From Candidatus Bathyarchaeota archaeon (GTDB lineage: Archaea; Thermoproteota; Bathyarchaeia; Bathyarchaeales; Bathycorpusculaceae), in the NCBI GenBank assembly GCA_963827165.1, contig CAWGZR010000003.1:192001-256000 (forward strand): DNA of 64,000 nt, read 5' to 3'. This document shows, one piece after another, positions 6,769-23,385 of this stretch. Below the pieces are notes generated by a model. The model did not search any database, was not told the origin of the DNA, and saw nothing but the letters and a program-made list of their open reading frames with translations. Numbering within the stretch: position 1 is the first letter of the stretch; every line of letters begins with the position of its first letter. Made by a program: the position numbers and the translations under genes.

Positions 6769-7136
6769 CTATTTCTTCCATTTTCTTGCCTTTAACTTTA
6801 AGGAGGCTGCAAGTGAAAAAGCAAAGAAGGCTATGACCACGGTTAACGCTATTTCTTGGACCGAAAGGTCCGGCGTCCTCGTTGCAGTCAGCTGTTTGGT
6901 AGGCGTGGCAGTTGGGTTGGCTGAGTTGGTTACTAAATTTTGGGTTTGCGGAGTGGAGCTTACGAAAGGTGTAGATGTCGGGAGGGAGTTGGCGTTGCGG
7001 TTACTTGAGGCGGCGTCTACGAAATGAAGCCTGCGAAATGCATGAGGAAGTAACCTACAAGGCTGCTGGTTAGGAAACACGCGAAAATCAGGGTTCCTTC
7101 ATGGCGATCAATGAAATCATCCATCTTGTTCTGCAT
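6769..7136 (-). pseudogene. Interrupted small membrane-anchored P/T/S-rich surface protein
   Basis: ATG 7136 with GGTG SD; hydrophobic N-terminus; in-frame TAG at 7017-7019, then TPPQVTATPTPS; a frameshift; then S/T-rich linker, TPDL, TM helix and basic tail KARKWKK. Confidence 0.45.
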
Positions 7137-7225
7137 TTTTTTTGCACCTGCTTTCTATGTTACATTTGGAGGGGAAAGGTTTTATGAAGGGGAAATCTGT
7201 AGTTTGAATTCAGCAAGCAAATTTC

Positions 7226-7302
7226 GGGCCGTTAGTCTAGCTGGCTAGGACGTCGCCCTCACGCGGCGAAGATCACCGGTTCAAATCCGGTACGGCCCAC
7301 CA
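7226..7302 (+). tRNA. tRNA-Val(CAC), CCA encoded
   Basis: GGGCCGTTAGTCTAGCTGGCTAGGACGTCGCCCTCACGCGGCGAAGATCACCGGTTCAAATCCGGTACGGCCCACCA; anticodon arm TCGCC-CTCACGC-GGCGA. Confidence 0.96.
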
Positions 7303-7339
7303 ATCTACTGTTTATTCGAATAAAAAAACTCGAACTCAT

Positions 7340-7609
7340 CTAATAAGGAACCGATGTTTTTCTTAGCTTTGTTTTGAACATGTGGTAGATTGGTTTCCCG
7401 CCGATGAGTAAAGCTGCCACTAGAGATATCACTCCAGCGCCATAATACACAAGCGTTATCAGGAAAATGGCAAAAAGAAATGAAACGTGGAAGGCGTAGG
7501 TTAGGAATAAGCCTACAGTTGGATAAATGAAGAGCTCATCTGGTGTTGGAAGGAAAATATACAAGGAAATCGCCAGCAGAAACGTTGACAATGCAACTTT
7601 TCTAAGCAT
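7340..7609 (-). CDS. Small hypothetical membrane protein
   Basis: 89 aa, three hydrophobic segments, LPTPDE motif. Confidence 0.6.
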   Translation of the reverse strand: MLRKVALSTFLLAISLYIFLPTPDELFIYPTVGLFLTYAFHVSFLFAIFLITLVYYGAGVISLVAALLIGGKPIYHMFKTKLRKTSVPY

Positions 7610-7745
7610 GTTACGCTATATTAGAGGCTGCATAGATAATAAAATTTGTTGCAACCCCTTACTCGCCAGAACAAACATGCTTTGCCTGAAAGTCTACGCT
7701 TAAAACCTTATTACCTTGAAAAAGAATTACATTTAATGTGATTTT

Positions 7746-8033
7746 ATGCATCGAAAACGTGTTTTCACAATCGCCGCCGTATTTCTAATCATAGCGGTAG
7801 TTGTTCCTCCCGTCATCGTTATTTTATCGGCGAACAACTCAATATATAAATATATAATTCCAGGAACCAACCCTACGCAAGGGTCACCCACCATGTCAAT
7901 TACACTGACCAATCAGGAACGCACTAACTTCCAGAACGCAGTCATCATCGCAGCCGTAATCGAGGTTATATTTCTAGCTTCGTTCATCACTTCGATTTAC
8001 TATGGCATAAACCACACACATCCAAAACATTAG
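7746..8033 (+). CDS. Small two-TM hypothetical protein
   Basis: 95 aa, two hydrophobic helices; BRE/TATA-like AAAACCTTATTA at about 7702. Confidence 0.6.
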   Translation: MHRKRVFTIAAVFLIIAVVVPPVIVILSANNSIYKYIIPGTNPTQGSPTMSITLTNQERTNFQNAVIIAAVIEVIFLASFITSIYYGINHTHPKH

Positions 8034-8355
8034 ACAAAAAGACTCTTTCAACATGATGCCCAACCAAAGTGTCACTGGCGTTGCGGGAGAAAACAGTAAT
8101 GTCAACATCTACTGCTTCGTCACCGATATTTAGCCTTCGTAGGAAACTTGGAATCCCCAACTTAAATCTGCCAAAAAAGAGAACTTTCAAGAAAAATATT
8201 ATGAAATCTAAGGCATGATGAAGCTTCTAGGTTACTTCATCTTTCAGAAAACCGTCTTTTTTTCCAGTGTTGTAGCAACGCAACCACAAATTTTTAAAAG
8301 CGGTTTGCAGACAATGACTTTAGTAAAGACCTACTGTTTTTGGGAGGTGCAATTT

Positions 8356-8556
8356 ATGCCTGAAACATCAATTAACATAACCGAGAAACTACAGAAGATC
8401 GGTCAAACAGCCAACGATTACAAAGACGCCATAGTCAACCAATTCAAGGATATGGAAGTCGAAGTAAGAGACTGGAATTTCGCCGTTGGAAAAAGCGACA
8501 AAGAATACACAGTCGAGGTTAATCTCAAACTCGGAATCAAATCCAAAAAACCTTAA
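8356..8556 (+). CDS. Small hypothetical protein
   Basis: GGAGGTG SD before ATG 8356; MPETSINITEKLQKIG...VNLKLGIKSKKP. Confidence 0.7.
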   Translation: MPETSINITEKLQKIGQTANDYKDAIVNQFKDMEVEVRDWNFAVGKSDKEYTVEVNLKLGIKSKKP

Positions 8557-8690
8557 GCAAGACACCTTGCCTAAGCAAAACCCCCTTTCTTTAAGATCTT
8601 TGACCTTAGTTCTACATCTTGGCTGATTCCTAACCAAAACAGATAAAAACTTCCCTTTGCATCCTCAACGCTACTGTAGAGGAAACGCGT

Positions 8691-8891
8691 ATGCCAACTG
8701 AAATTACTGATGTGGATAAGTTTGTCGCAATGAGCGCGAAAGCAAAATACTGTTCTGTGCAAAGGCTCAAAGACAATGTTAAATTGAAACTGCGCACGTC
8801 CCGCCAACTATATACTCTAAAAATAGAACCCCTCAGAGTCGATGAAATCATAAAGAAACTCCAATGCGAAATCCAAGAAAAAGAAAAATAA
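8691..8891 (+). CDS. rpl38e: 50S ribosomal protein L38e
   Basis: MPTEITDVDKF...VKLKLRTSRQLYTLKI matches the L38e signature KxKxRxxRxLYTL. Confidence 0.85.
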   Translation: MPTEITDVDKFVAMSAKAKYCSVQRLKDNVKLKLRTSRQLYTLKIEPLRVDEIIKKLQCEIQEKEK

Positions 8892-8974
8892 ATCCAATCT
8901 TTCTTAACTATTAGTTTTATGTTGTTCAGTTCGTTTTGAGGGCAGACCCTGTTCTTTGCCATCCAAGCACAGAA

Positions 8975-9004
8975 CCGTATACGAAAGCATCACCAAAACC
9001 CAGT
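8975..9004 (-). repeat. Box I dispersed 30-bp motif, copy 1
   Basis: RC = ACTGGGTTTTGGTGATGCTTTCGTATACGG. Confidence 0.9.
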
Positions 9005-9050
9005 TTTTCACCCCTCACTCGTCAAAATTCCTGCTAAAACTGATTAATTG

Positions 9051-9342
9051 TTCGAAAACAAACGAACCTTAAATATTCATGACAGCCTAAAGGAGAAAAG
9101 CTGGAAAAATAACAAAAAAAGAGTTCAAATAGTCTTCCGAGGAAGAAATTTGCCCCAATATTATCTATAATGAGGGGAACTTTGCCTGAAAGCATTCAAT
9201 TTCACTGTAAGAAGACAAAAATACTAATCCATAGATAGAATTCTACCCCGCTAATTGGCCGAATTTGAATTTTTCATTTGTCTGTTCCCATTTTTCACTC
9301 GAAAATCAAGCGAATGGTCATTTTTTAAATGTAAAAGTTAAA
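9051..9342 (+). repeat. Box II (9051-9080) + Box III (9313-9342) composite element, copy A
   Basis: TTCGAA-N6-CGAACCTTAAATATTCAT, then AATGGTCATTTTTTAAATGTAAAAGTTAAA 262 nt later. Confidence 0.8.
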
Positions 9343-9580
9343 ATAGGCTCAGGTTTATCTCAGAAAAATGCATGAAATTGATGATTGCTCCGTACCGCGT
9401 ATTCCATTTATGCTCTTCGTTCGACGAAGGCTGGTTCAGTTTGGCATTTGAAGAATGTAACGAAGGTATTTCAGTGAGGTTAGGATAATTCTCCAGCAAA
9501 GGTCAAATGGGTGTGGGTGCAGACTTGAATGAGCAATGGGTTGATTCTTTAAGGCGCCTGAATTGGTTGGGAAGTTAAAA

Positions 9581-9610
9581 AGTGAGTTTCGTTGATGCTT
9601 TTGTATACCG
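9581..9610 (+). repeat. Box I dispersed 30-bp motif, copy 2
   Basis: AGTGAGTTTCGTTGATGCTTTTGTATACCG; inverted relative to copy 1 (24/30 identical). Confidence 0.9.
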
Positions 9611-9700
9611 ATCCAGGAAGGACAGAGAGATTTTTTTGGCACCTTGGATGTAATTCACTCATAGTTGATGGTTTGTTGTTAATTTGGTTGCGGGTTCGTC

Positions 9701-10408
9701 ATGAGTGTTGAGCGTAATCTGTTAATTTCTCTGTTGAAATTAACAAAAAACGGGCCTGTTTTAACTGAACTTGTTAAAAGAGAAGCTCATCTATCTGCAG
9801 CCGTTATGTCAAAATTGCTAGCAAAATTGCAAAACGAGGATTTAGTTTATTTGAAACAAGGCTGCATTGAAGTCGAAAGCGAAAACAGGCTCACACTTGC
9901 AGTTCAAGCCCTCTCGTTAGGTGCAGACGTTGAAGACATCAGTAACTTGCTTTGCTGGCAAGAATTTGAAGAAATTGCAGGCTACGTGCTGAAAAATAAC
10001 GGTTTCACAGTTTCAAACAATGTTCGTTTCAAGCAGTCGGGTCGAAGATGGGAAATAGATGTTGTCGGCTGCAAGAAACCGTTGGTTATCTGCATCGACT
10101 GCAAACATTGGCAACATGCTATTCCCCCCTCTGCTCTGAGGAAAATCGTTGATTCGCAAATTGACCGAACACAGGCAATGGCAGATTCATTGCCGAACCC
10201 TTCGCTCAAATTGGGATGCACTCAATGGAACGACGCCAAGTTTATGCCTGCAATTCTGTCACTCATGCCCAGCGCGTTCAAATTCTACTATGAAGTCCCA
10301 ATCGTTCCCATACTACAACTGCAAGACTTCTTAAATCAACTATCCGCCTATACAGAAAACCTAAAGTTTTTCACTAAAACCTTCAACAAATTAACTCATA
10401 ATCTTTAG
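9701..10408 (+). CDS. Mrr-like PD-(D/E)XK restriction-endonuclease-fold protein with N-terminal wHTH
   Basis: WQEFEE..., EIDVVG..., IDCKHW motifs. Confidence 0.8.
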   Translation: MSVERNLLISLLKLTKNGPVLTELVKREAHLSAAVMSKLLAKLQNEDLVYLKQGCIEVESENRLTLAVQALSLGADVEDISNLLCWQEFEEIAGYVLKNNGFTVSNNVRFKQSGRRWEIDVVGCKKPLVICIDCKHWQHAIPPSALRKIVDSQIDRTQAMADSLPNPSLKLGCTQWNDAKFMPAILSLMPSAFKFYYEVPIVPILQLQDFLNQLSAYTENLKFFTKTFNKLTHNL

Positions 10409-12289
10409 AATTGAAGATCTTGCCACTTTAAACGCAGGATAGAGACTGCAAAGCAAGATTCCGGCTAAGGCAGCGAAAAGCAACCCGGCAATCTCAAATA
10501 TCGTGAAACCCGTTACCACGGGCTGGGGCAACAAGAACAAGTAAGTTAGCATCGTGCCAAGCGAAATTCCGATTCCAAAGCTTGAAAGCAGCAAAACTGC
10601 ACTTTGCGCCCCCAAAACCAAAACAACAAACCGAGGTTTCGCACCAATAGACCTCAAAACGCCGAATTCTTGATGCTGCTCATCTATCATAAGCATCATG
10701 TAGCTGACCATGCAAAGGGCTGCAGCGGCCAAAGTAAAGAAGGGCATAATCATTATTGTTTCCCAACTTGACCCTAGAAAACTTGTGTCTTTTTCCACGA
10801 CGCTGTTTATTTGGAAAACGTTCAAGTTTGGATCTATATTCTTTAGTAAGCTCTTGATTTGAACGATCGCGACTGACTGGTCAGCAGAGCTTTTAAGCGT
10901 TACCAAGAGAAGATTCGGGCTCAAAATTCCAGATGCATTTTCAAGAGTTTGGATAGGCACATATGTGACAAAGCCATTATTTATTGGGTCAACACAGACA
11001 CCGACGATGTTGTATTGGGTGTTTTTGAATAACATGTCTTCAACTAGCGGGTTTGCCTGAGATATTCCAAGACTTGAATCGGGCATGTAGATAGTTTGGG
11101 AAACTGAATCGCCAATTACAGCCTGATATTGATCTCTAGTGTTCAAGAATCTGCCCTGCACATTCCAGCTACTAGAGAGTTCCGCGGGGTTGACACCTAC
11201 CACCATGGCGGTTGTTGTCCTGTTACCACCTACATAACCAACCGAGCCGGTATCGCCGTTAAAACTGAAGTTTGCAACCTCCTGAATCTGCCCGTCTAAA
11301 ACCAAACGAGTATCAACCAAATCCACGCTTGACAAAGAGTTTAGTTGGGTTACGACTGAGTTGGAAATAGCCAGATTTGGGCTGGAATAGTCAAAACCGC
11401 TTGTATTAAGGGCGCCTGAAAACTTCGATAGAAGCTGTTCGTATTGGGTGCCCATGCCGGGTGAGGCAATAACTATGGAGTTTTTGCCCACGCTATTTTG
11501 AACCCAACTTGTAGTTGTGTCGCTTGCGATAACTCCGCCCCCGACACATACTGTAAGCAGGATGAAAACTATGGACAGCAAAATCAGCAGTCTAAAAGTT
11601 GCTGATTGACGACGAAGCAGGCTTCTGCTGGCTATGCTCCAGGTTAATCCAGATTTTGACAGCGGCTTATGTTTTCCCGTTTTTGCTAAGCCATGGTAGG
11701 TTACGGGCGAAAGAGCCTTAATCGGTGGCATTCTTGAGGCTTTAAGAAGGGGCCCAATACCGAAAACCAATGCCAAAACTAAGAAGACGACAAAAACTAT
11801 AGGTCCCGACCAAAGATTAGGCACCCTGTATTCCGAAAAAACATAGTTTGAGATGCCATAATCCATTATAAAACCGAGAATTAAGCCTAAGCCACATCCC
11901 ACCACGGTCGTCGCTAAAAGTTCCGTCATAAAATATCCGGCAACAAGGTTGTTTGGGCATCCAGCCGCCTTTATCAAACCGAAATCCCGCGTTCTTTGAG
12001 CCATCATTGAGAAAGCAATGAAGGATGTGAGGATTGCGCCTACGGCGAAGATGAGAATGCCAATGAATGAAATAAACTGGGAGAAAACCACGTTTATTCC
12101 CACCGTAAAAACGTTGGTGGCTGAGGTTAAACTGCTAAGTTGGCTACTGAATAGTAGCAGAAACATGGTGGAAGCAACACTAAATGCTAAAGTTGCTACT
12201 GTTAAGCTTGTTTGAAGTCTCCTTCGAAGCAAATCGTTTATTGGAAAACCTGCGCTACTCATTTGTACTCGCCAAGACGCCTTCTTCAA
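10391..12289 (-). CDS. ABC transporter permease, FtsX/MacB family (two FtsX domains)
   Basis: QRTRDFGLIKAAG and QEFGVLRSIGA motifs; adjacent to an ABC ATPase; start probably about 12262. Confidence 0.88.
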   Translation of the reverse strand: MKKASWRVQMSSAGFPINDLLRRRLQTSLTVATLAFSVASTMFLLLFSSQLSSLTSATNVFTVGINVVFSQFISFIGILIFAVGAILTSFIAFSMMAQRTRDFGLIKAAGCPNNLVAGYFMTELLATTVVGCGLGLILGFIMDYGISNYVFSEYRVPNLWSGPIVFVVFLVLALVFGIGPLLKASRMPPIKALSPVTYHGLAKTGKHKPLSKSGLTWSIASRSLLRRQSATFRLLILLSIVFILLTVCVGGGVIASDTTTSWVQNSVGKNSIVIASPGMGTQYEQLLSKFSGALNTSGFDYSSPNLAISNSVVTQLNSLSSVDLVDTRLVLDGQIQEVANFSFNGDTGSVGYVGGNRTTTAMVVGVNPAELSSSWNVQGRFLNTRDQYQAVIGDSVSQTIYMPDSSLGISQANPLVEDMLFKNTQYNIVGVCVDPINNGFVTYVPIQTLENASGILSPNLLLVTLKSSADQSVAIVQIKSLLKNIDPNLNVFQINSVVEKDTSFLGSSWETIMIMPFFTLAAAALCMVSYMMLMIDEQHQEFGVLRSIGAKPRFVVLVLGAQSAVLLLSSFGIGISLGTMLTYLFLLPQPVVTGFTIFEIAGLLFAALAGILLCSLYPAFKVARSSILKIMS

Positions 12290-12947
12290 GGCATAAAACT
12301 TGATCCGCCAACTGCTTTATTTGCGCGTCATGAGTCGCGACAATAACTGTTTTTCCTTTTTCCTTCAGAAGTTGAAGGACCTGCACAATTTTCTGGGCGT
12401 TTTTATCATCCAAATTACCTGTCGGCTCATCTGCGAGGATAAGCTGCGGATCATTAGCTAGGGCTCTTGCAAATGCGACACGTTGCTGCTCGCCTCCGCT
12501 CAATTGAGAAGGAAAATGATTAGCCCTGTTCAGCAAACCCACTGATTCAAGCAAATCATTTATGCGTTTTTCAATGTCTTCCTGAGGTTTAGCCGTCCAT
12601 TCCATGGGAAACGCAATGTTCTCAGCAACGGTTAAGGTGGAAACTAAATTGTAGGCTTGAAAAACGAAGCCGACGCTATTGCAGCGGTAATCTGACAATT
12701 GATCTTCATTTTGGTCTGTTAAGTCTTGACCATCGACAAAGATTTTTCCTGCGGTCGGCCTATCAATTCCGCCGATAATATTGAGAAGAGTGGTTTTTCC
12801 CGAACCTGAAGCCCCGCTCAAAACCACAAACCGTGCTTTATGAATAGAAAAGGTGATATCTTTTAAAACTTCAAGTTTCTCGTTACTTACATCATAGGCT
12901 TTTCCCAGCGTCTCTGCATGAACGAAAAACTCGTCTTGGGTTTGCAT
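12255..12947 (-). CDS. ABC transporter ATP-binding protein (LolD/MacB type)
   Basis: [35 protein letters not shown]. Confidence 0.95.
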
Positions 12948-13023
12948 TCCTCTTGGCCTCTCCTAGCGAAAAAAGAGTTACGCGTTACTATAATATAGGT
13001 TGAGGTACAGTTGCTTTCTTTCT

Positions 13024-13473
13024 TCAGGGGTAGGTTGTGTCCAGATTTAGGTTTCCTCTATCGCGTTTGAGTATTCTTATTTTTTCAGGCAGTTTATTTT
13101 TCTCCCAATCTGACCATTCGACTTCTTTGAAAAGCCACCGCTTTCCCAAGTGCGCCGCCACCACGGCGTGTTTATGGGCGTTGTCTGCGGGGATTAATTC
13201 GTTTAGGAATCTGAAAAGTTTGTCGACTTGTTGTTTGGGGAAATATGCGTAGTATGTGGCGTTTTTGACTTCAAAAGCGTACATGTGAAGGTCGCGTCGG
13301 GCCATGACGTCAGGGAGCGGGTTTAGGCTTGGGTTACTTACTGGAACCCGAACGGCGTTGTAACCTTTTTTCTGCAAAAGCTTAACCAGTACAGTTTCAC
13401 TGTAGAAGCCTCTCTTGCGCCAACGCCTAAGTCTAACCCTGTCTATCTCTTTACTCAATCGATCGGACTCCAC
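13024..13473 (-). CDS. hjc: Hjc-like Holliday junction resolvase
   Basis: RGFYSE...GYNAVRVPVS...PDVMA...FEVK pattern of the Hjc family. Confidence 0.75.
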   Translation of the reverse strand: MESDRLSKEIDRVRLRRWRKRGFYSETVLVKLLQKKGYNAVRVPVSNPSLNPLPDVMARRDLHMYAFEVKNATYYAYFPKQQVDKLFRFLNELIPADNAHKHAVVAAHLGKRWLFKEVEWSDWEKNKLPEKIRILKRDRGNLNLDTTYP

Positions 13474-13530
13474 TCGTCAACTGCTTATCAACGCTCAAAG
13501 AATAAAAATTGTTGCCTTTAGAGTTGGGCA

Positions 13531-13560
13531 AAACACGTTGGGGGATGCTTTTGTACACCT
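13531..13560 (+). repeat. Box I dispersed 30-bp motif, copy 3 (degenerate)
   Basis: AAACACGTTGGGGGATGCTTTTGTACACCT; core GATGCTTTTGTA.ACC retained. Confidence 0.6.
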
Positions 13561-15842
13561 TGTACTGAATGGTGGCACGCTGGCGAAGTCTGGTGACGAA
13601 AACAAAAGCAAGTAATACGTATAACACCATTGTAACCAATCATGCAATCGTATCCATCCACACAGCAAAAATATTGCCAGTTTAGACTACATTAAGCAGT
13701 TCAAAGTTAGCGCTTGACCCAAAAACACACAGAACTCAACATCAACCGCACACAAAAAATTGCAGCCAAAACTCTGGTGAATATGAAGATCTACAGGTCC
13801 TTTTCAGAAACTCGGAAAAAACACAGTCTCACTTGCGAAAAGCTGCAAACAGAAAACAAAAAACGACAGCCTATTTCGGAGTTTTTTTCCGCATTTCTCG
13901 GTCATAGCGCCTTACAGTTCCAGGATCGCACACAATCTTAGCGGGTGAGTCCGAAGATAAAACTAGGAACTCCTCTCGGTTTAAGATTATTGGAAAGCAT
14001 TTTGGTCAAAACAGGTTCCTGAAGGGAAAACCTTCGTCTCCAATTTTTTTTGTCAAAAAACCGCAAAGTTTCGTTAACCACGAAAAAAACCACGTAAAAC
14101 CTCGAAGACCAACCGAAAAAACCGAGTTTGCCTTCGCATGGAGATTTTCGGGGGTACTTATATGAGGCCACGATATTCTCCATGCCACGTCTCTATGGGA
14201 ACACTTGAAAAGGCTGAAACAGGGGTTTTTTAGAATTTTAAGGTCAAACTAAGCCCCAAGATTCTCGTTTCCATACCAAAAAAATGGCAGCTTTTTTAAA
14301 TCAATTGTTACGAAGAAAAACAAGCCCCAATCAACAGTTTTAGAGTAAAATACCCCCTAATAATAGTCATTTTTACGAAACAAGGCGAACGGAACCACGT
14401 TAATTGGATCCCTGAAAAGACAACTCAAAACATTCAGCAAAAATTTTGAAATCAATCGTTGCCCCAGATTTCCACAGAATCTTTTGCTTGACCGTTTGAT
14501 AACCCCGGAAATTTGGTGCCACTATCATACCATATTTTTTTCATCGGAAGTTCGTTTGATTTTGTTTTGACCGCGAGAAATTATTCTTCTTTTTTTTGAG
14601 GGAAAGCAATTAGAAAATGCTGGCGCGAACATAGCAACTGTAAATCCAAAAAGCACAATTAGCTGTTTTTAAAGCTCACCACAGAAAGAAAAAATAAGCA
14701 CAAAAATTAGGCCACAAAGACACCGCAACTAAGGTAAACATCACGAAGGTCACTAGGCTCTCACGACCGTCAACCGCGCAAAAAATTGCCATCCACGCTC
14801 AACCAACACCTGAACGTCCGTTTCTAAAACCCAAATGACTGCTGCTTCTTCCCTTGCGATGTCTTCCTTAAAGTTTTTGAATAACGATTTTATCAAGCAC
14901 GGCTCCAGAGTCCTTAGCCTACGTGAAGGAATTTTAATAACTCACCCAAACCGACTGCTCTGCAGTCAACCAATTACAGGGCAGACTTCAATTATTTTGC
15001 CGAAGTCGTTTTCTTGAGCTTTCAAATCTATGCGAATCAACCACGCTTGCTCCAGAAACAAACTCGTGATTCCAATGCATTCATTTTCTTAAAAACTGTT
15101 TTTCGGTTGCTTCAAATTCCCTGAGATGTAAAAGATTCACGACCCATTCCTACTTGAACCATCACTATGATGCAAACGCCGGTTTTTGTTTACTGAAAAA
15201 GTGCAAATTGATCCATCATTTTTTCTCAACAAGCACCCTGCATAAGATTAGCTGGCGTAAGCAGCGCTATATTCGAGCGATTGCTTGATATGAAACTTCA
15301 CATACGTGAACTCAGTGACATAAGCAATACGCTTACGATTTACCATCACGGGGCACAACCAGCAAGATGAATAACAAACCATCGAAAACAACTTCAATTC
15401 GCGTAGGCGAACAAAACCGGCAGGTTGCACTTTTGTCGGGGAGTAAAGTGCTTACAGATGTTTAAGAAAATCACACTGACTGAGCAACCCCCTCAGTTTA
15501 CTTTGCCACAGCACCTATTCGATATCAAATTCTTTGCAGCTTAGGAAAAGCAGAAATCAGTTTCAAATACAACAGGCAACTGTCAAGCCGCGTCAACGCA
15601 CTATCAATAATCGGGAAGCCTCGTGTCATTAAAAGCCTGTACACTGCAAACAGGCGTTCATCTGTTTTTTTAGATAATTTCAGTGCCCTGCACTTGCCAC
15701 AGGAAAGATAACCGGGCTGTTTGCCAAAATAACTTTTGACAATGCGGATGTACTATCTTTTGGTCTTTGAAATAAGGAAGAGTTTTCCTCTGTTTTTTGT
15801 CGCACCAGGCATATGGGAAAATCGTGTTATCGCCGTCCCAGC

Positions 15843-15872
15843 CCGTATACAAAAGCATCAACGGCACACAGT
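15843..15872 (-). repeat. Box I dispersed 30-bp motif, copy 4
   Basis: RC = ACTGTGTGCCGTTGATGCTTTTGTATACGG. Confidence 0.9.
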
Positions 15873-15922
15873 TTATTTCAGGAGCCATTAACTAATTTTC
15901 AGCCGACTTGGCTAAACCAGTT

Positions 15923-16207
15923 TTCGAAGCCAGCCGAACCTTAAATATACATGCAACGCGTTAAGCTGAAACTGCAAAAATAATTCGATCAATCGCTGAT
16001 GCCAGCCTTTTCAACCCAAAAAACGGTAGCTTTGAAGAGCAAGAGGTTCAAAGGCAAGGAAAATCAGATAACTTAGGCTGAAGTGGAGGCTATTTGAAAC
16101 ATTTTTAGGATGATCTCTAACTTTTCATCCAATCTAATGGGAAAACGTGGGAATTTTCAGGGGCGAAAAAACAGCTAAATGGTTATTTTTTACAAATAAA
16201 TGTTAAA
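15923..16207 (+). repeat. Box II (15923-15952) + Box III (16178-16207) composite element, copy B
   Basis: TTCGAA-N6-CGAACCTTAAATATACAT, then AATGGTTATTTTTTACAAATAAATGTTAAA 255 nt later. Confidence 0.8.
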
Positions 16208-16414
16208 ACAATATCAGTCATGGCTCGGAATAGCGCTTATTCTGCCGAATTATAGCAGCTTTCTTGAATTCTTTAAGCTTCGGATGCCGAAAACTCGAAA
16301 CTTTCTAGCCTATCAATCAAAAAATCAGCCAGCGTAAGGCGCCTGCGACCCCCAGAAAAAAGCAGGCATTTCGAAATATTTTTCAGCGCTAACTGACGTT
16401 ACAAGAATGAGAGC

Positions 16415-16832
16415 ATGTCAAACTTTAAGGTCGCTAACTACAGTTTCAGCTTTGCGACTAAGGGCGAAATAGATTTCGTAGATTTGTCCCAGAAGGTTCA
16501 GGAAGAGGTCTCTGCGTCAGGCGTAAGAAACGGAATTGTCCACGTGTTTGCGCCCCATGCAACAGGCATACTGGTTTTGACAGAAAATGATGACTCCCTG
16601 CTTAGAGGACATAAGGATGTTGCTTGAAGAGCTCGCACCAAAAAGATCAACTTATCAGCATCCTTCGAACGCCCACTCTCACCTGCGATCGATGCTTCTC
16701 CCGCCTGACAAGACTTTGCCAATAGTTAACGGGAAAGTCACTTTTGGAACTTGGCAGTCGTTGCTCTTCGTGGAAACTGATGTCTACCCGCGAAAACGAA
16801 CCATAATCATCCAAGTCCTGGGCGAACAGTGA
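16415..16832 (+). CDS. yjbQ: YjbQ/UPF0047 family protein (one frameshift near 16600)
   Basis: HVFAPHATG...EN, then YQH.SNAHSHLRS and GTWQS motifs split over two ORFs. Confidence 0.85.
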
Positions 16833-16974
16833 AGTTGGAAGAAACAGGCACGTACTTATTCTTACGGCGCAATTGAGTAAATTTGGTTTTTTCGGTTGCT
16901 GTTACCGCAACATGTAAATCTGGTCCATTGTTTTCGCGCGTTTAATGACAATTTAAGGTGACCAAGTCTGCGTA

Positions 16975-17260
16975 TTTAACTATTTATTGTAAAAATTGTC
17001 CATTCGATGTCATTTCGTGACAACCTTAGGAGGCAAAAACCTCGGATTAGATATGCAAATCGAATTTCAAGGCGCACAAGGCCAAAATTATGCCCACCTA
17101 GACGGCTCTAGACCCCATTTCAGAAACGGTCAAGCTCTTTTCAGGCTTAAATAAACCAAGGTTTCACCTATTTCAAGAGAAAACCGCCCAGCCATTGGCA
17201 GATTCAGCGCCTTTGCCTGAATTCGGTGGGATGATTATTTAAGGTTCGGCGCTTTTCGAA
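16975..17260 (-). repeat. Box II (17231-17260) + Box III (16975-17004) composite element, copy C (inverted)
   Basis: RC: TTCGAA-N6-CGAACCTTAAATAATCAT, then AATGGACAATTTTTACAATAAATAGTTAAA 256 nt later. Confidence 0.8.
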
Positions 17261-17265
17261 GAAGG

Positions 17266-17994
17266 TTAACCTTTTCGCTCAGTTGGGAGCCTCTTGGATG
17301 ATCCGCGTGGGCGCATCCGAGATTTCTTCCTATCCGTTGCTTTTTCATTGGGTTTGTCTTCAAAGGTGTCAGCTTCAACTTCACCCATCGGCAAGGTGTC
17401 AACAGCGTCAGGGAAATCAGCGGTTGTCGCCTGCACAGCTCCGCATTTAAGCATAGATTCTACTGCTTTATCGACATCTTCTGGCTGGGCGTCTATGCCC
17501 CGCGTGGCATCCATGAGAACAATGGTTTCGTATCCATGTTTCCGTGCGTCAAGAACCGAGTGTAGAACGCAGTAGTCAGTAGCCAATCCCCCCACGAAAA
17601 GCCGCCGGATGCTGCGCTCCTTCAACTCTTTAGCAAATGTGGTTTGGTCAAAAACTGAGTAGCTTTCCCGCATAGGGTCGGTAGCTTTAAAGACAACCAC
17701 CGCATCTTTTGGCAGTTTAAACTTGGGGCTGAACTCGGCGCCTTTAGTATCTTGGACACAATGCGGAGGCCAAGAACCACCCTGCTGCTTAAACGAGCAA
17801 TGGTTCCGAGGATGCCAATCACGGGAAGCAAAAATAGGGGCTTTAGCGTCCGCGAAAATTCTTGCGAACTCGTTTAAAAGAGGAATAATTTCGTCGCCGC
17901 CGGGAACAGGAAGCGCTCCTCCAGTTAGGAAATCATTTTGGATGTCAGTTATCAAAAGTGCATCGGAACTTGTCAAATTATAGGTTTTGTTCAA
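17266..17994 (-). CDS. pncA: Nicotinamidase/pyrazinamidase
   Basis: DIQNDF, DWHP..H.SF, WPPHCVQ, GLATDYCV. Confidence 0.93.
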   Translation of the reverse strand: MNKTYNLTSSDALLITDIQNDFLTGGALPVPGGDEIIPLLNEFARIFADAKAPIFASRDWHPRNHCSFKQQGGSWPPHCVQDTKGAEFSPKFKLPKDAVVVFKATDPMRESYSVFDQTTFAKELKERSIRRLFVGGLATDYCVLHSVLDARKHGYETIVLMDATRGIDAQPEDVDKAVESMLKCGAVQATTADFPDAVDTLPMGEVEADTFEDKPNEKATDRKKSRMRPRGSSKRLPTERKG

Positions 17995-18140
17995 ACAGAT
18001 ACCTCATAAAATAGTCTTTAAATTTATGTTGTTTAAAATTCAAATTTACTAGCGCGAAACTATTGGATAAACCTTTTGTGGGTAACGCACGTTTGAAAAA
18101 TTGAAAAATGCAGGCGATAGCACAAAGACAACGGGGTTTT

Positions 18141-18170
18141 ACTGTGTTTTGGTGATGCTTTTGTATACCG
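18141..18170 (+). repeat. Box I dispersed 30-bp motif, copy 5
   Basis: ACTGTGTTTTGGTGATGCTTTTGTATACCG. Confidence 0.9.
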
Positions 18171-18222
18171 CTTAGCAACGCTTATCTTTTAAGGGACGCT
18201 CAATAAAATACGAGACGTCAAA

Positions 18223-19758
18223 ATGCTTGCCAAAAACAAACCAATCACAAACAGGGAAATGCGAGCCCTAGAAACTAACGCGGAATATTACGGCATGAGC
18301 CTACTTCAACTAATGGAAAACGCTGGAAGCCGCGTTGCCGAAGAAGTGGCTTCTCGCTTCCCCGAAGGCATGAAGGTTGCTGTTTTCTGTGGTTTAGGTG
18401 GAAACGGAGGCGACGGCTTTGTCGCCGCTAGGCATCTTTTGAACCTTGGCTTCAATGTTTCCGTGGTTGTTGTGGGCAAATACAGAGACATCGGTCACGA
18501 TGCGGCGCGTGCTAACTTTGCGATTCTCCAATCAATACAGAACAAGATTGCCTTGGTTGAAGTGACGGACAGCTCAGCAATACCAAAATTGACCATTGAA
18601 ATAGTTATCGATGCTTTGTTGGGAACGGGCACAAAAGGAAAAATCAAGCCGCCAGTAAGCCAAGTGGTAAACTGCATCAACACCTCAGATACTTTCAAAA
18701 TCGCAGTTGACGTTCCAACAGGAATAGATTCCGACACTGGCGATGTTCTAGGCACAGCGGTTAAAGCTGATTTAACCATAACTTTTCACAGATCAAAAGT
18801 CGGGCTGGAGAAAGCAACGGAGTACGTTGGTGAACTTGTAGTAAAGGACATTGGATTGCCTATAGAAATAGAGCGTTATGCGGGTCCAGGCGACGTTTAC
18901 CTTGCAAGGGTTCCGAGGAGGCCAACAGCGCACAAAGGCGATTTCGGACGACTCCTAGTCATCGGCGGAAGCGAAATTTATTCGGGAGCACCGACTTTGG
19001 TTTCGCTGGGTGCCATGCGAACGGGAGTTGACCTCGTTTATCTCGCTGCGCCCTCGAAAACAGCGAACGTGATTTCTTCTATGTCCCCTGACTTGATTAC
19101 GATTAAGCTTGAAGGCACCAACCTGAATCCAGCCAACATCGAAACGGTCAAACCGTACCTTGCGATGGTTGATGCAGTAGCATTAGGTCCGGGTTTAAGC
19201 TTGAATGCTGAAACCGTCGATTTCGTAAAGCTTTGCGTTGAAGAGGTTGAACGCGTGGGGAAACCTTTGCTTTTGGACGCCGATGGACTTAAAGCCTTTG
19301 CCAAGTTCAAAAGACCCCTCAGGACGCCGCTTGTTCTTACGCCTCACGCTGGCGAGTACTCGCTACTTACGGGTGAAACGCTGCCTGAAAACATGGAGGA
19401 ACGAGCCGTGGCAATACAGAAAACTGCGAAAAAACTCGATGCTGTAGTTCTTGTAAAGGGCAAAGTTGACTGCATCTGTAGTCCTGAACGCATCAAGCTG
19501 AATTTCTCTGGGAACCCCGGCATGACAGTGGGCGGCACAGGTGATGTTCTTAGCGGCATCGTCAGCGGCTTAATGGCTCAAGGAGTTGACCCGTTTGAAG
19601 CAGCAACGGCTGGAGCTTTCGTCAACGGCGCAGCAGGCGATTTCGCCGAGGCCGAGCTTGGCTTTCACATGGTTGCATCAGACATTATTGACTGGATCCC
19701 AAACGTCTTCGAGGAACCAATGAACCACTTAAAGGTACGCAACCAACTTGGAAAATAA
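18223..19758 (+). CDS. nnr: Bifunctional NAD(P)H-hydrate epimerase/dehydratase
   Basis: LMENAG, GGNGGDG, DALLGTG, VDVPTG, HKGDFG, TPHAGE, GGTGDVLSG. Confidence 0.95.
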   Translation: MLAKNKPITNREMRALETNAEYYGMSLLQLMENAGSRVAEEVASRFPEGMKVAVFCGLGGNGGDGFVAARHLLNLGFNVSVVVVGKYRDIGHDAARANFAILQSIQNKIALVEVTDSSAIPKLTIEIVIDALLGTGTKGKIKPPVSQVVNCINTSDTFKIAVDVPTGIDSDTGDVLGTAVKADLTITFHRSKVGLEKATEYVGELVVKDIGLPIEIERYAGPGDVYLARVPRRPTAHKGDFGRLLVIGGSEIYSGAPTLVSLGAMRTGVDLVYLAAPSKTANVISSMSPDLITIKLEGTNLNPANIETVKPYLAMVDAVALGPGLSLNAETVDFVKLCVEEVERVGKPLLLDADGLKAFAKFKRPLRTPLVLTPHAGEYSLLTGETLPENMEERAVAIQKTAKKLDAVVLVKGKVDCICSPERIKLNFSGNPGMTVGGTGDVLSGIVSGLMAQGVDPFEAATAGAFVNGAAGDFAEAELGFHMVASDIIDWIPNVFEEPMNHLKVRNQLGK

Positions 19759-20302
19759 CTCCGAAACGCCTAAACCAGTTTTGCCCGTGAGAATAACCAT
19801 TTATCACGCTGCCCAAGATGATCCTAAAAAGAACACTGCTCTTAGACTTAAACGGCGAGGATTCGCAAGGATAGTTACCAAAGTAAAGTTCTTGCCCAAA
19901 CGGGCTATTGTGCTTAACCCTTTTGGCGAAATCGCGTTTTCACCGGCTGATAGGGAAAGGATTTCGCAGTTTGGGTTAGCAGCGTTAGATTGCAGTTGGG
20001 AACATGCCCAGAAAGTTATGGGAAAACACGTCAAAGGTACCAGCCGATGCTTGCCGATTCTAATCGCAGGTAACCCAGTTAACTACGGCAAATTGACAAA
20101 GCTTACAACAGCTGAAGCCATCGCCGCCGCCCTATTCATAGCAGGTTTCAAAGAAGAGTCTGAGACTGTTTTGTCGGTTTTTAGTTGGGGTCACACGTTT
20201 TTTGAGCTAAACAGTATGTTGCTTGATAACTATGTATTGGCGAAGGATAGCGGCGAAATCGTAGAGATGCAAACAAGGCTTCTTGGAAAAAAACGTGAGT
20301 AA
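19748..20302 (+). CDS. tsr3: 16S rRNA aminocarboxypropyltransferase Tsr3 (DUF367)
   Basis: DDPKKNT, LDCSWE, RCLPILIAGNPVNYG, FSWGHTF. Confidence 0.92.
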   Translation: MENNSETPKPVLPVRITIYHAAQDDPKKNTALRLKRRGFARIVTKVKFLPKRAIVLNPFGEIAFSPADRERISQFGLAALDCSWEHAQKVMGKHVKGTSRCLPILIAGNPVNYGKLTKLTTAEAIAAALFIAGFKEESETVLSVFSWGHTFFELNSMLLDNYVLAKDSGEIVEMQTRLLGKKRE

Positions 20303-20304
20303 GA

Positions 20305-20334
20305 ACTGTGTTTGGGTGATGCTTTCGTATACCG
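20305..20334 (+). repeat. Box I dispersed 30-bp motif, copy 6
   Basis: ACTGTGTTTGGGTGATGCTTTCGTATACCG, starting 2 nt after the tsr3 stop. Confidence 0.9.
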
Positions 20335-20450
20335 TCGGCGTTTAATTCTGAATATCTTGCTTGCACCTTGCGTGACTCAAATTTTTTTCCACAAAATTTT
20401 TTGTTTGTGTTTTGAGTTGGTTTTCTTGTTTGGGGCTTGGATAGGTTGTA

Positions 20451-20530
20451 ACTGTGAGCTAAAATAAGCTATCTTAAGCTAAAATACGCTATAATGAGCT
20501 GTTTTAAGCCAAAATACGCTATAAAAGGCT
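20451..20530 (+). repeat. Degenerate 10-bp-period tandem repeat (8 units ending GCT/GCC)
   Basis: actgtgagct aaaataagct atcttaagct aaaatacgct ataatgagct gttttaagcc aaaatacgct ataaaaggct. Confidence 0.8.
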
Positions 20531-20807
20531 AAAAAAGACAATGTAATCGCCTGGTGTAAGAATTGGGCGTTTGTAGGGGTGGAAAATGAGAGTTTTCGTC
20601 TCAAGGTCATAAAATGTCTTAATAACACCAGATGCTTGATATAGACTATCCATTAACGATATTTTGACCGCATTTGAAGCAGAACATATTCTCATACGGG
20701 TTTACTGAGCAACGACAGCAAGTGTTTATTTTTTATGCACTTACCAAAATCAGTGCATAAGATTTTGGTAAAGTCTTATTAGATCAATAGAATTTCTCAT
20801 ATAAACA

Positions 20808-22112
20808 ATGAAGATAAGGCAACTCTCAGTTTTGCTCATTTTGTTGCTGATTTCTCCGCTTTTTCTGAGCTTTATCCAAACATCCAAAGCGGTCACCTCA
20901 TCGAATAAGTCTAACGTGTATATTGGAATCGATGTTGCCTTCCAAAGCGTAGCCGCAACTGAACAACAAGTCGATAATATCAGTTCTTACACAAACTTCT
21001 TTGTAATCGGATGCACCGGAAACTACAATCTAACGAGGCTTACTATCATAAGCGAATACGTATACGATAAGGGATTAACCTTCATAGTTTATTCCGATGA
21101 TCCTAGATATCCCTCAAGCGAATGGTTCCGAGAAGCAAAGAACAATTGGGGGGACAAATTTCTAGGAATATATTACCTTGATGAAGAGGGCGGCAAACAA
21201 CTTGACCAAGCCAAATACCCCATTGTTACAACATCAACTAACTATAGTGAGGCAGCTGCAACATACGTTAATGTGATGAATCAACTGCTGCGTAATGGGT
21301 CATTCTCAATTTCCCAAAGATTTGCTTATCCAACAGAATATCAATTATTCACCTCAGACTATGGGCTTTACTGGTACGATTACGAAGCAGGTTATAACAC
21401 GGTTTTCGATGAGTTCGGCTTGCGCACCGGTTGGGCAAATGATAGTCAACTACTGAATCTGGCGCTCTGCAGAGGGGCAGCCACCGCATTCAACCAAAGT
21501 TGGGGGGTAATGATAACTTGGGCGTACAATCAACCGCCCTACATGGAGAACGGTTCAGAACTCTACAAGGACATGGTTTTAGCATATAACAACGGCGCTA
21601 AATACATCGTAGTTTTTGACAGCAACGCAAACTATACTCAAAACGTTTTGACTCAAGGACAGCTCAATGGGATAAAGCAGTTCTGGCAGTATGTTCAAGC
21701 TAACCCAAGAACCATAAATACTGTTAGCGACAGAATGGCGTATGTACTCCCCCAGGATTATGGCTATGGTTTTCGCGGTCCAGATGACAAAATCTGGGGA
21801 TTATGGAATACAGATTCACTCACTATTGATATCGGTATGAGCGTCTCCACACTCTTGCAAATGGAAGGCGATAACTTAGACATAGTATACCCATCGCAAG
21901 CCCTTGATTCTGAAGGGTACAATAGCATCATCTATTGGAACGATACAACACTTATACCCACACAATCACTTAGCCCTCAACAAGCTCATTCCTCACCTTT
22001 GTATTCAGATAGGATTTACCTTTATGGGACCGTGGCAAGTATCATGGTTGCTGTTGCGACAGCCGCCGCATTGTTAAAGTTTCGAAAAAAATCATCTAAA
22101 GTTCTTAATTGA
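20808..22112 (+). CDS. Secreted, C-terminally anchored hypothetical protein
   Basis: Signal peptide; Y/W-rich core (YLDEEGG, FTSDYGLYWYDY, FDEFG); C-terminal TM with basic tail. Confidence 0.85.
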   Translation: MKIRQLSVLLILLLISPLFLSFIQTSKAVTSSNKSNVYIGIDVAFQSVAATEQQVDNISSYTNFFVIGCTGNYNLTRLTIISEYVYDKGLTFIVYSDDPRYPSSEWFREAKNNWGDKFLGIYYLDEEGGKQLDQAKYPIVTTSTNYSEAAATYVNVMNQLLRNGSFSISQRFAYPTEYQLFTSDYGLYWYDYEAGYNTVFDEFGLRTGWANDSQLLNLALCRGAATAFNQSWGVMITWAYNQPPYMENGSELYKDMVLAYNNGAKYIVVFDSNANYTQNVLTQGQLNGIKQFWQYVQANPRTINTVSDRMAYVLPQDYGYGFRGPDDKIWGLWNTDSLTIDIGMSVSTLLQMEGDNLDIVYPSQALDSEGYNSIIYWNDTTLIPTQSLSPQQAHSSPLYSDRIYLYGTVASIMVAVATAAALLKFRKKSSKVLN

Positions 22113-22767
22113 AAGATGCAAATTATTCAATAATTTCAAGTACAGGAGTTCCTAAGTTAGGACAGCTTTAAAGAAATCAGCTAAAGTCCATTCATTCAAT
22201 TTCAGGATTGCAATGTTCACAAACTCTGATAGAACTCAAGTTTGTTCGATTACCTATCTTCAATTTTTCCGCCACTCTGATGACTACGAAAAATAGCTAC
22301 GATTCCACCATCTTTCACCTGTTGCAGCAAAGCATTTAGACTCACAGAAACACCAGTCTTTTTAATTACTAATTGCCCGATCCTTTTCTCTTGAACTCTC
22401 TTGCTTTGTCGTACATTCGCATTTCTTCAAAGCTTTCGCTGTATCTTGCGTTCTTCTGCATTTCTTGAGGGTCTTAGGCAGCGCCTTCGTCTAATTATTG
22501 TGGAACTTATTAAATTCTGGAAGAGCTATTCTATAGGATGTAATCCAAAAAAAAGCATTCTGAATTGGGGAAAGGGAGCGATTTCAGCCACCATGAGCGA
22601 AGGGGGCTTTTAGAAGTATACCCCCAAACTGAGAAAAATAGGAATCAGACAAAAACTTGAAAAAGAGAGCTAAATACAGAATGCACACCGATTTTAAAAT
22701 AGGCTAATTAACAACGAGCGCTTAAGCATGCAGCGTATGCGTTCACGGCTGTTTAAGTGAAGATTCG

Positions 22768-23385
22768 ATGAAAACAAAACAGGAAAACGCGGATATAGAA
22801 CATTTTAACCGCAGAGCAGCAACCTATGAAACTGCAATCAGTCAAGGCTACTTCTTCGACAGAGTTCAGAGAAGGGTTTTGCAGTTGGCTAAAGACCAGC
22901 GTTCCCCGCAGGTCATTATGGACGTTGGTTGCGGGACAGGTCGATTACTTAGAAAAGCAAATCAGCAGTGGCCCAACGCAAAGCTTGTGGGTGTTGACGC
23001 GGCTGAGAAAATGATAGCTCAGGCGACTCAGCTGTTCCCTGGGGCAGAATTTCATGTTGCTATGGCTGAAGCTTTGCCTTTTCCTGAAGCCTCGGTTGAT
23101 ATTGCTTTTAGTACACTTTCATTTCATCATTGGGCTAATCAAGCCAAAGGAATAAGTGAAGTTGCCCGTGTTTTGCGGCCGCAGGGAAGGTTTGTGTTGG
23201 CAGACATTGTTGTTCCGCGTTGGATGTCAGTCTTTGTCGGGAACTTTAGGTACAACAGCCCTGCAACTATAAGAAACATGTTCACGAAGGCTGGGCTAAC
23301 TGTGGATCTTCAGCAGCAGCCGTGGAGTTGGTCACGGGTTCTTTTGGTAACAGTTGGTTCAAAGGGTAGCGGAGGGAGGGCTTAG
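22768..23385 (+). CDS. Class I SAM-dependent methyltransferase (UbiE-like)
   Basis: DVGCGTG, AEALPF, SFHHW, RVLRPQG. Confidence 0.92.
   Translation: MKTKQENADIEHFNRRAATYETAISQGYFFDRVQRRVLQLAKDQRSPQVIMDVGCGTGRLLRKANQQWPNAKLVGVDAAEKMIAQATQLFPGAEFHVAMAEALPFPEASVDIAFSTLSFHHWANQAKGISEVARVLRPQGRFVLADIVVPRWMSVFVGNFRYNSPATIRNMFTKAGLTVDLQQQPWSWSRVLLVTVGSKGSGGRA

Follow-up and report, generated by a model that had tools for sequence, protein, structure and literature searches.

The stretch of DNA analysed here (the window) comprises 64,000 nucleotides of a Candidatus Bathyarchaeota genome, corresponding to positions 192001–256000 of contig C3 in an assembly (G000) of 3,131,164 bp and 14 contigs. Between positions 8975 and 20334 of the window, an earlier reading of the sequence (hereafter the original prediction) had reported six copies of a long, non-palindromic intergenic motif, Box I (approximately AAAACTGTGTTTTGGTGATGCTTTTGTATAC). 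These copies are set among a gene for a winged helix-turn-helix (wHTH) protein with a PD-(D/E)xK nuclease domain (9701–10408, plus strand; Mrr_cat/NERD family, from Pfam, alignment and a structure model), the hjc gene (13024–13473, minus strand; Pfam), which is the sole Hjc-family gene found in the assembly, a gene of the UPF0047 family (16415–16832, plus strand), and an nnr-tsr3 operon (18223–20302, plus strand; Pfam). The UPF0047 gene is frameshifted here and intact in relatives, with products of 138–141 aa; its YjbQ-like frame is split into open reading frames (ORFs) at 16415–16627 and 16587–16832, reflecting either a pseudogene or an assembly error.

Copy 1 of Box I (8975–9004, minus strand; 1 mismatch) is the outer member of a back-to-back (-,+) pair, and copy 2 (9581–9610, plus strand), a consensus match, precedes the wHTH-nuclease gene by 90 nt and shares its orientation. 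Copy 3 (13531–13560, plus strand) is upstream of hjc, at 57 nt, and runs counter to this gene; it makes up the left half of a head-to-head pair and is degenerate, its 16-nt core having 2 mismatches and its 5′ half being diverged. Copy 4 (15843–15872, minus strand), again a consensus match, is found on the UPF0047 side, at a distance of 543 nt from this gene because a non-coding module (Box II/III, see below) is inserted between the two. Copy 5 (18141–18170, plus strand) and nnr run in the same direction, the motif being placed 52 nt before the gene and about 10 nt upstream of a conserved TATA-like element (GCTTATCT). Copy 6 (20305–20334, plus strand) is located immediately 3′ of the tsr3 stop codon, and its equivalent in relatives lies 77–90 nt upstream of lysE or of a methyltransferase gene.

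All six proposed copies were confirmed, five of them strong and the one at 13531 degenerate, and the remainder of the window gave zero matches, as the original prediction had it. The five strong copies match the 30-nt consensus at ≤3 mismatches (0–2 each in actual fact), compared to 0 matches expected from 100 dinucleotide shuffles. All window copies lie between Pfam-supported genes and are thus intergenic. In the assembly of 3.13 Mb as a whole, Box I is present in 7 copies, the degenerate one included; the sole further copy beyond the window is at C5:533610(+), and a search with the 16-nt core yielded only three extra weak matches, which are unrelated. The consensus obtained from relatives (130 non-redundant instances, selected through their core columns, the 5′ half having played no part in selection) reads wwAA-s-TGTGTTT-k-G-k-TGATGCTTTTGTATAC, with about 31 informative positions. 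The motif is non-palindromic as described, with two direct TG.TTTTG half-sites 13 bp apart, and its length needs correction from 30 bp to about 31 bp, as it extends 2–3 nt further 5′. The proposed difference between minus copies ending in TATACGG and plus copies ending in TATACCG disappears in these 130 instances, in which positions +15 and +16 are variable. The view that Box I is not a repeat of the CRISPR (clustered regularly interspaced short palindromic repeats) type is borne out, since there is no regular array, spacings vary from 0.6 to 4 kb, and an Rfam scan of window positions 7000–23000 returned a tRNA only, besides one chance match at E = 1. The corresponding tRNA gene (7226–7299; RF00005, 65 bits) is situated 1.7 kb from copy 1 and is unrelated to Box I.

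Box I was detected in all 24 other sampled genomes of the genus, with 1–11 copies in each, the reversed control pattern giving 1 match in 41 genomes. At the level of the order, the 16-nt core (1 mismatch; A/C at the penultimate base) occurs in 250 of the 271 genomes that are at least 90% complete, with 2–17 core matches per genome. In each genome of the genus, most copies fell inside one syntenic locus of about 10 kb, with the order [Box I- ... Box I+] wHTH-nuclease> <FtsX <ABC <hjc [Box I+ ~278 bp Box I-] followed, to the right of this head-to-head pair, by ... Box I- UPF0047> <isochorismatase-family Box I+ nnr> tsr3> (Box I+) lysE macro (arrowheads indicate gene direction). The synteny core, i.e. 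the nuclease gene, hjc, UPF0047 and Box I-like sites ending in GTATCC, reaches other families of the order. The back-to-back pair adjoining the nuclease gene (copies 1 and 2 in the window) spans 620–829 bp and was found in 18 of 21 sources, the segment inside it having one and the same orientation in all 18. Of the two inverted pairs initially proposed, that formed by copies 1 and 2 is therefore a conserved unit, whereas that formed by copies 4 and 5 spans two genes and constitutes no unit. Empty sites and target-site duplications were not seen among the relatives compared, nor is there a transposase or invertase among the genes of the locus.

The minimal and oldest unit of Box I is the head-to-head pair, with its two members about 270 bp apart. 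Many small genomes of the family contain exactly one forward and one reverse copy, and in 4 of the 5 small genomes examined these form a head-to-head pair 239–271 bp apart, with a conserved inner element, adjoining UPF0047. The spacing is 231–333 bp in other families, and larger genomes feature extra copies, in both orientations, packed into about 10 kb around hjc. In the window, the right-hand member of the pair is represented by a remnant read from the sequence, with the 5′ half at about 13816–13830 (minus strand) and the 3′ half lost in this genome; the intact partner in relatives of the genus lies at 252–313 bp, start to start. The inner element, which has a TTAGACTACAYTAA core and is delimited by alignments (13561–13800), is kept in the window and includes TTGGTGA / TCACCAA and TTAGACTACATTAA, the full set of conserved islands being CTGGAG, TTGGTGAYR, GTAATACC, TCACCAA and TTAGMCTACAYTAA. 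The best-conserved island, TTAGACTACATTAA (TTAG-N6-CTAA, 13682–13695), might represent the core of a dif-like recombinase site, but as a candidate it is weak, and its arm symmetry is poor past 4 bp (5–7 of 11). The inner element has no conserved RNA fold, with 5 predicted pairs and zero compensatory changes, and the small ORFs in it were judged to be non-coding because the stop-to-stop frames cross Box I without consistent start codons. The complete interval from hjc to UPF0047 (13474–16414) extends over 2.9 kb without a supported gene (1.7–4.7 kb in relatives), which is unusually long for such compact genomes, and is located at the presumed antipode of the origin.

A second pattern concerns the position of Box I relative to genes. 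The original prediction held that the copies have no fixed position with respect to gene starts, which the comparison with relatives contradicts: each copy is found at a conserved distance and orientation from the start of an orthologous gene. Box I lies about 50–90 nt upstream of nnr, gdh, hjc, UPF0047 and the wHTH-nuclease gene, in an orientation that is fixed for each of them. It is in the same orientation as nnr (19 of 20 loci; median 52 nt, range 50–64) and as the wHTH-nuclease gene (19 of 20 loci; median 89 nt, range 46–110), and in the opposite orientation to gdh (14 of 14 loci; median 65 nt, range 50–68), hjc (19 of 20 loci; median 58 nt, range 52–60) and UPF0047 (12 of 18 loci; median 63.5 nt, range 52–69). 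Two genes of the same locus serve as internal controls, and both tsr3 (0/18) and the ABC gene (0/15) are without Box I. A conserved TATA-like element (GCTTATCT, TCTTATCT or TTTTTATCTC) follows the end of Box I about 10–20 nt downstream, and in genome G014, where the nnr block has been relocated beside the nuclease gene, Box I is retained at 50 nt. Lineage-specific single copies adjoin rps19, polD-DP2 / DUF2070, a PhoU-like gene, an ABC-3 permease gene, lysyl-tRNA synthetase (LysRS) / AsnB, endonuclease III together with a ribbon-helix-helix (RHH) protein, a GINS subunit, isocitrate/isopropylmalate dehydrogenase, an M32 peptidase, and a class-V aminotransferase with a DEAD helicase; two of these copies (L011 and L074) sit between convergent genes. 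Box I is thereby established as a conserved promoter-proximal site.

The position of Box I on the chromosome can be described relative to the replication origin. Matches to PF09079 (orc1/cdc6) are found in G000 at C5:482 kb and C10:85 kb only, none of them near the Box I cluster. The region C5:482383–484420 has the features of a canonical origin adjoining orc1-1, with at least three origin recognition boxes (ORBs) with G-strings around an AT-rich stretch. These canonical ORBs are located upstream of orc1-1, at C5:483.6–484.4 kb, and are inverted around the very AT-rich DNA. The orc1-1 frame itself is apparently split in the G000 assembly into ORFs of 310 and 136 aa, compared to 411–445 aa in relatives. 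The same ORB arrangement is evident in the closed genome G003, at 2,167,812(-), 2,167,987(+) and 2,168,255(-); the GC content is 20.8% over 120 nt between the first ORB and the second, the AT-rich stretch overall having 21–35% GC in G000 and G003. The angle between orc1-1 (taken as the best PF09079 match) and the nuclease/Box I locus was then obtained for 12 single-contig genomes of the order. It amounts to 172.1–179.9 degrees in 8 of the 12 (179.9, 179.7, 177.6, 176.6, 176.1, 173.9, 173.3 and 172.1 degrees), comprising all 7 genomes of the family of the window (four genera, 2.17–3.04 Mb) and one from another family.

Box I copies outside the cluster are oriented in accordance with this axis. 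In the 7 closed genomes that have strong off-cluster sites, 19 of 19 are aimed from orc1-1 to the cluster, being (-) on the arm left of the origin and (+) on the arm right of it; three extra matches to the 16-nt core in G040 (1 mismatch each) obey the same rule by inspection. The 19 sites adjoin at least 12 different genes, and gene orientation offers no explanation for the polarity because sites are co-directional with some neighbouring genes and opposite to others. Moreover, the sites associated with gdh, rps19 and polD change sides relative to the origin from one genome to another, and yet keep to the rule. A prediction set beforehand, that orc1-1 would be found between (-) and (+) off-cluster sites wherever two of these are on one contig, held for 8 of 8 sites in 5 draft genomes, orc1-1 lying between the sites in G002, G012 and G015 and left of the (+) site in G005 and G010; G000, G016 and G008 are likewise consistent with the rule. 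The five off-cluster sites closest to the cluster (in G096, G014, G157, G008 and G040) aim at it, and 3 of the 19 lie within 70 kb of it. Strong sites pointing in the opposite direction are confined to the antipodal cluster, in which the order in G003 and G096 (- + + | - - +) is mirror-symmetric about the head-to-head pair. Weaker Box I-like matches (2 mismatches of 18) are split into 4 with the rule and 4 against it, and were treated as noise because the reversed control pattern also matches at that level. In G003, and likewise in contig C3 of G000, the cluster is where long ORFs change from the plus to the minus strand, i.e. genes converge on it. Near the origin, three genomes (G182, G107 and G014; loci L161, L158 and L078, respectively) carry a Box I about 11–12 kb from orc1-1, within about 1.6 kb between polD-DP2 and the DUF2070 gene that is without a long ORF.

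These data establish Box I as a polar chromosomal mark, with arrows that exit the origin and meet at one antipodal point. The idea of oriented sites for chromosome maintenance put forward in the original prediction gains unexpected support from the distribution and polarity of the sites (antipode in 8/12, polarity in 19/19 and 8/8). Its initiator variant is not supported: a canonical ORB(-)–unwinding element–ORB(+) origin is located elsewhere, there is no orc1/cdc6 gene near the cluster, and Box I is without the ORB dyad.

Box I looks like a termination or chromosome-organising signal hitherto undescribed in archaea. A pure regulon fails to account for polarity and antipode, and a pure chromosomal signal fails to account for the fixed promoter spacing. 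As the simplest reading of both properties, we propose on sequence grounds, with somewhat less than even confidence, that Box I copies are polar protein-binding sites aligned with replication, similar to Ter sites, which double as promoter-proximal operators. Box I would then be the recognition site of a sequence-specific, asymmetrically binding protein, forming with it a tight polar protein-DNA complex that would be direction-sensitive for replication forks, or for some other machine moving from origin to terminus. Such a traveller would pass the complex in one direction and be halted in the other. Outside the terminus, which we infer to coincide with the antipode, selection would retain sites only in the orientation that permits passage, and the two facing copies would form a trap in its minimal form, in the manner of the bacterial Tus-Ter and RTP-Ter systems. 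The same complex probably doubles as an operator of adjacent genes, as Ter sites do for tus and rtp, because every copy precedes a core promoter by a fixed distance of 10–20 bp.

Archaea are thought to finish replication by chance fork collision, and we know of no fork trap in this domain of life; literature searches for archaeal terminator sites and for rare long polar chromosome signals found neither. In Sulfolobus, replication is reported to end by stochastic fork collision (PMC3020120). It is tempting to speculate that Box I represents the first fork trap of archaea, i.e. a sequence-specific system of replication termination, made up of a polar 31-bp site and a putative binding protein, with a minimal trap consisting of the head-to-head pair (members about 270 bp from each other) at the antipode of oriC, order-wide in Bathyarchaeia-type archaea, and with a multi-site zone around the only hjc in larger genomes, the sites of which are also operators. 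This joint claim is doubtful as a whole. There are parallels to Tus-Ter of Escherichia coli and RTP-Ter of Bacillus subtilis, which also feature asymmetric sites of 20–30 bp, about 6–11 per genome, with origin-to-terminus forks meeting the same face at all sites, and an innermost opposed pair opposite the origin. In these systems, too, sites in promoters serve as operators, tus and rtp being described as autoregulated via Ter sites in their own promoters (PMC10331603).

Several observations weigh against the proposal of polar, Ter-like sites, and some of them set Box I apart from the bacterial systems. Homologues of Tus (PF05472) were found in 0 of 21 genomes, and RTP (PF02334) gave matches over the cut-off in 2 of 21, at 26–27 bits, which are borderline, PadR-like and away from the cluster. 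Box I is retained in at least 16 genomes, from four genera, in which the wHTH-nuclease gene was not detected, so that its product cannot be the universal binder. The locus is not antipodal in 4 of the 12 single-contig genomes (150, 142, 44 and 15 degrees), and a single contig is no proof of a closed circle. Many sites are near the origin, 14 of the 19 off-cluster sites lying less than 28 degrees from it, which is not where bacterial Ter sites concentrate, and nearly all sites are promoter-proximal, unlike those of the bacterial systems. The outermost two or three cluster sites of large genomes (copy 1, the nnr copy and the post-tsr3 copy) have the wrong orientation for a simple trap, and would halt incoming forks at the cluster edge. 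Relatives are not independent, and symmetric inversions keep polarity automatically, so that the true sample is of the order of 12–14 orthologous sites. Finally, in a scan of GC, purine and k-mer skew of G003 (60 tiles, 51% of the genome), the best split was found at about 1835 and 304–344 kb with a statistic of 1151, compared to 357 for the orc1-1/cluster split, and only one of four sign switches was at the cluster. Compositional skew is taken as uninformative because these breakpoints miss both orc1-1 and the cluster; GC skew of contigs C3 and C5 of G000 likewise gave noisy curves without clean turning points.

A candidate for the binding protein is suggested by the gene at 9701–10408, which has Box I in its own promoter. 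Its product of 235 aa consists of an N-terminal winged helix, a helical linker and a PD-(D/E)xK domain, the catalytic set of which (E118, D120, D133 and K135) is invariant in 15 homologues. The structure model has a mean pLDDT (predicted local distance difference test) of 88.9, and its best fold matches (E about 4e-4, template modelling score 0.3–0.4) are the nuclease domains of VC1899, Can2/Card1, FokI, AF1548 and R2 elements, together with winged helices of the IclR type. At the level of sequence, comparison with PDB entries gave no match for the single sequence and a best profile match of E = 0.23. As a universal Box I binder, this protein was attractive in view of its adjacent gene, the Box I in its promoter and its FokI-like architecture. 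It was then downgraded, and is not a general binder because the genera g36, g42, g39 and g37 are without the gene (0 of 18 genomes) and yet keep Box I (16 of 18). Further candidates would be the orphan Orc1/Cdc6 paralogue and the PadR/RTP-like protein encoded at C9:129033–129305 of G000.

The first alternative to polar sites with a role on the chromosome is a plain regulon, in which Box I would be the operator or activator site of a transcription factor for nnr-tsr3, gdh, hjc, UPF0047, the wHTH-nuclease gene and a changing set of housekeeping genes. Clustering would then arise since the regulated genes are neighbours, and the chromosomal pattern would be due to hitch-hiking. The fixed orientation and spacing relative to start codons, the abutting TATA-like GCTTATCT / TCTTATCT, the sites that move along with their genes upon rearrangement (as in G014), and the lineage-specific sites at varied promoters (those of endonuclease III/RHH, isocitrate/isopropylmalate dehydrogenase, M32 peptidase and aminotransferase genes) are all as a regulon would have them. 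The original prediction itself had named consistent placement at fixed promoter positions as the mark of an ordinary regulon, and the copies are indeed promoter-proximal at fixed spacing. A regulon does not, however, predict the polarity relative to orc1-1 in 19/19 and 8/8 cases, with sites co-oriented with some neighbours and opposite to others, nor the antipodal position, nor the universal head-to-head pair, which is not flanked by protein-gene starts on both sides, and it is at odds with the two sites between convergent genes (L011 and L074). A non-palindromic site of 31 bp is unusual for archaeal regulators, which also counts against this explanation. Overall, a plain regulon appears rather unlikely.

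Another alternative, which seems to us distinctly improbable, retains a polar role for Box I, and replaces the replisome by a chromosome-organising machine, for which Box I would be a roadblock or a loading/unloading site. Analogues would be oriented CTCF sites, the XerD-XDS unloading of SMC (structural maintenance of chromosomes) complexes at the bacterial terminus, and the TrmBL2-dependent SMC boundary at dif of Thermococcus. Polarity and antipodal position fit such a machine equally well. The enrichment of sites near both the origin and its antipode is what would be seen for a machine loading near the origin and released at the terminus, and the 2.3-kb non-coding stretch of the window (13.6–15.8 kb) beside the head-to-head pair may be compared with the 1.9-kb intergenic region with dif between convergent genes that is described as the SMC boundary of Thermococcus kodakarensis (PMC11840125). 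Both loci feature a large conserved non-coding stretch in the terminus region (a presumed one in the case of Box I), and the boundary acts through bound protein and not through genes. It relies, according to the same account, on TrmBL2 filaments and DNA shape (PMC11840125), whereas Box I is a discrete repeated motif of 31 bp known from sequence. Furthermore, Box I matches no described system, and a search around the cluster yielded no dif-like 11-6-11 site with conservation in G003, of which 51% was sampled.

Box I was also considered as a Xer/dif site, and rejected as such since it is non-palindromic and no conserved 11-6-11 site was found near the cluster: of 489 candidate 11-6-11 palindromes, none is both conserved in the G003 tiles and near the cluster. 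Seven tyrosine-recombinase matches were obtained in G000, with zero within the window. The KOPS (FtsK orienting polar sequences) of bacteria and the ASPS (archaeal short polarized sequences) of Thermococcales resemble Box I in being oriented from the origin on both arms and in converging at the terminus region. They are short and present in hundreds of copies, in contrast to the 31 bp and 2–17 core matches per genome of Box I; ASPS are described as polar tetramers converging on dif, and archaea are stated to be without FtsK (PMC2958812).

A second replication origin opposite oriC1, with Box I as an ORB-like site for an orphan Orc1/Cdc6 paralogue or another initiator and with inverted pairs that would flank an unwinding region, is very unlikely. 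The antipode would be equally optimal for a second origin, and the genomes do carry a second orc1/cdc6 gene. Box I shares with archaeal ORBs and mini-ORBs, the sites of Orc1/Cdc6, the character of a long, asymmetric, polar site occurring in inverted pairs, with a T-run followed by a G-rich stretch, and contains a G-string-like TTTTGGTG when compared by eye with ORBs. It differs from them in lacking the dyad (TTCCAGTGGAAAC-type core), an orc1/cdc6 neighbour and an AT-rich unwinding element, canonical ORBs being found elsewhere in the genome. No initiator gene adjoins the cluster, from which orc1-2 is 37–98 degrees away, and the segment between the back-to-back pair has 30–46% GC, compared to 21% at oriC1. 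In addition, sites near the cluster aim at it and origin-proximal ones aim away from oriC1, and genes run towards the cluster and not away from it. Near-cluster polarity, gene convergence and the lack of an initiator gene and an AT-rich element favour a convergence point over a second origin. Lastly, the ends of a mobile or invertible element, as also suggested by the original prediction, are extremely improbable: in its geometry, the head-to-head pair, inner element included, resembles a miniature inverted-repeat transposable element of about 310 bp (a terminal inverted repeat of 31 bp on each side of about 250 bp, solo ends being dispersed over other places), but there is one such unit per genome at a syntenic position across an order (24/24 other genomes of the genus, core in 250/271), flanked segments are never inverted in 18 sources, solo copies are orthologous and at fixed promoter positions, and the locus is without a transposase.

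The Box I locus contains further non-coding elements. Three paralogous modules consist of a strong promoter-like Box II (TTCGAA-N6-CGAACCTTAWATA), followed 230–420 nt on by Box III, which features a T-run (CGAAT..TTTTTTACAT..AGTTAAA). In module A, Box II (TTCGAA-N6-CGAACCTTAAATA) is located at 9051–9081 and Box III (CGAAT..TTTTTTA.AT..AAAGTTAAA) at 9310–9342, both on the plus strand. In the second module, both were recognised as sequence matches on the plus strand, Box II at 15923–15953 and Box III at 16175–16207. The third (16975–17263, minus strand) begins directly after the stop codon of the isochorismatase-family gene. In the entire assembly of 3.13 Mb, all three Box II copies and the only three good Box III matches are found in this locus. 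Conservation of the modules, the middles of which are variable, extends across the genus and to a second one; they may represent non-coding RNA genes or protein-binding modules. Box IV (14103–14190, plus strand), also promoter-like and with 74–90% identity in 10 relatives, shares with Box II and Box III a CGAA-N-CGAA theme. Its layout is CTCGAAG-N8-CGAAAAA ... ATGGAGA-N31-TCTCCAT, with a TATA-like CTTATATGAGG between the inverted arms, and its RNA fold comprises 20 pairs, 2 of them with double changes. Box IV looks more like an operator-flanked TATA box than an RNA structure. Finally, a tandem series of about eight 10-bp units (consensus AGCTAAAATA), in phase with the helical repeat of DNA, is present at 20457–20534, 125 nt downstream of copy 6 and upstream of a gene for a secreted or membrane protein of 434 aa without a Pfam family. 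This array may correspond to bent DNA or to an array of binding sites.

Box I provides a simple bioinformatic marker of the origin–terminus axis in fragmented genomes, by which orc1-1 was placed correctly in five drafts. If Box I copies are indeed polar sites aligned with replication, they would offer a concrete and testable way into replication termination, the polarity of chromosome arms or SMC traffic for an abundant uncultured archaeal lineage.

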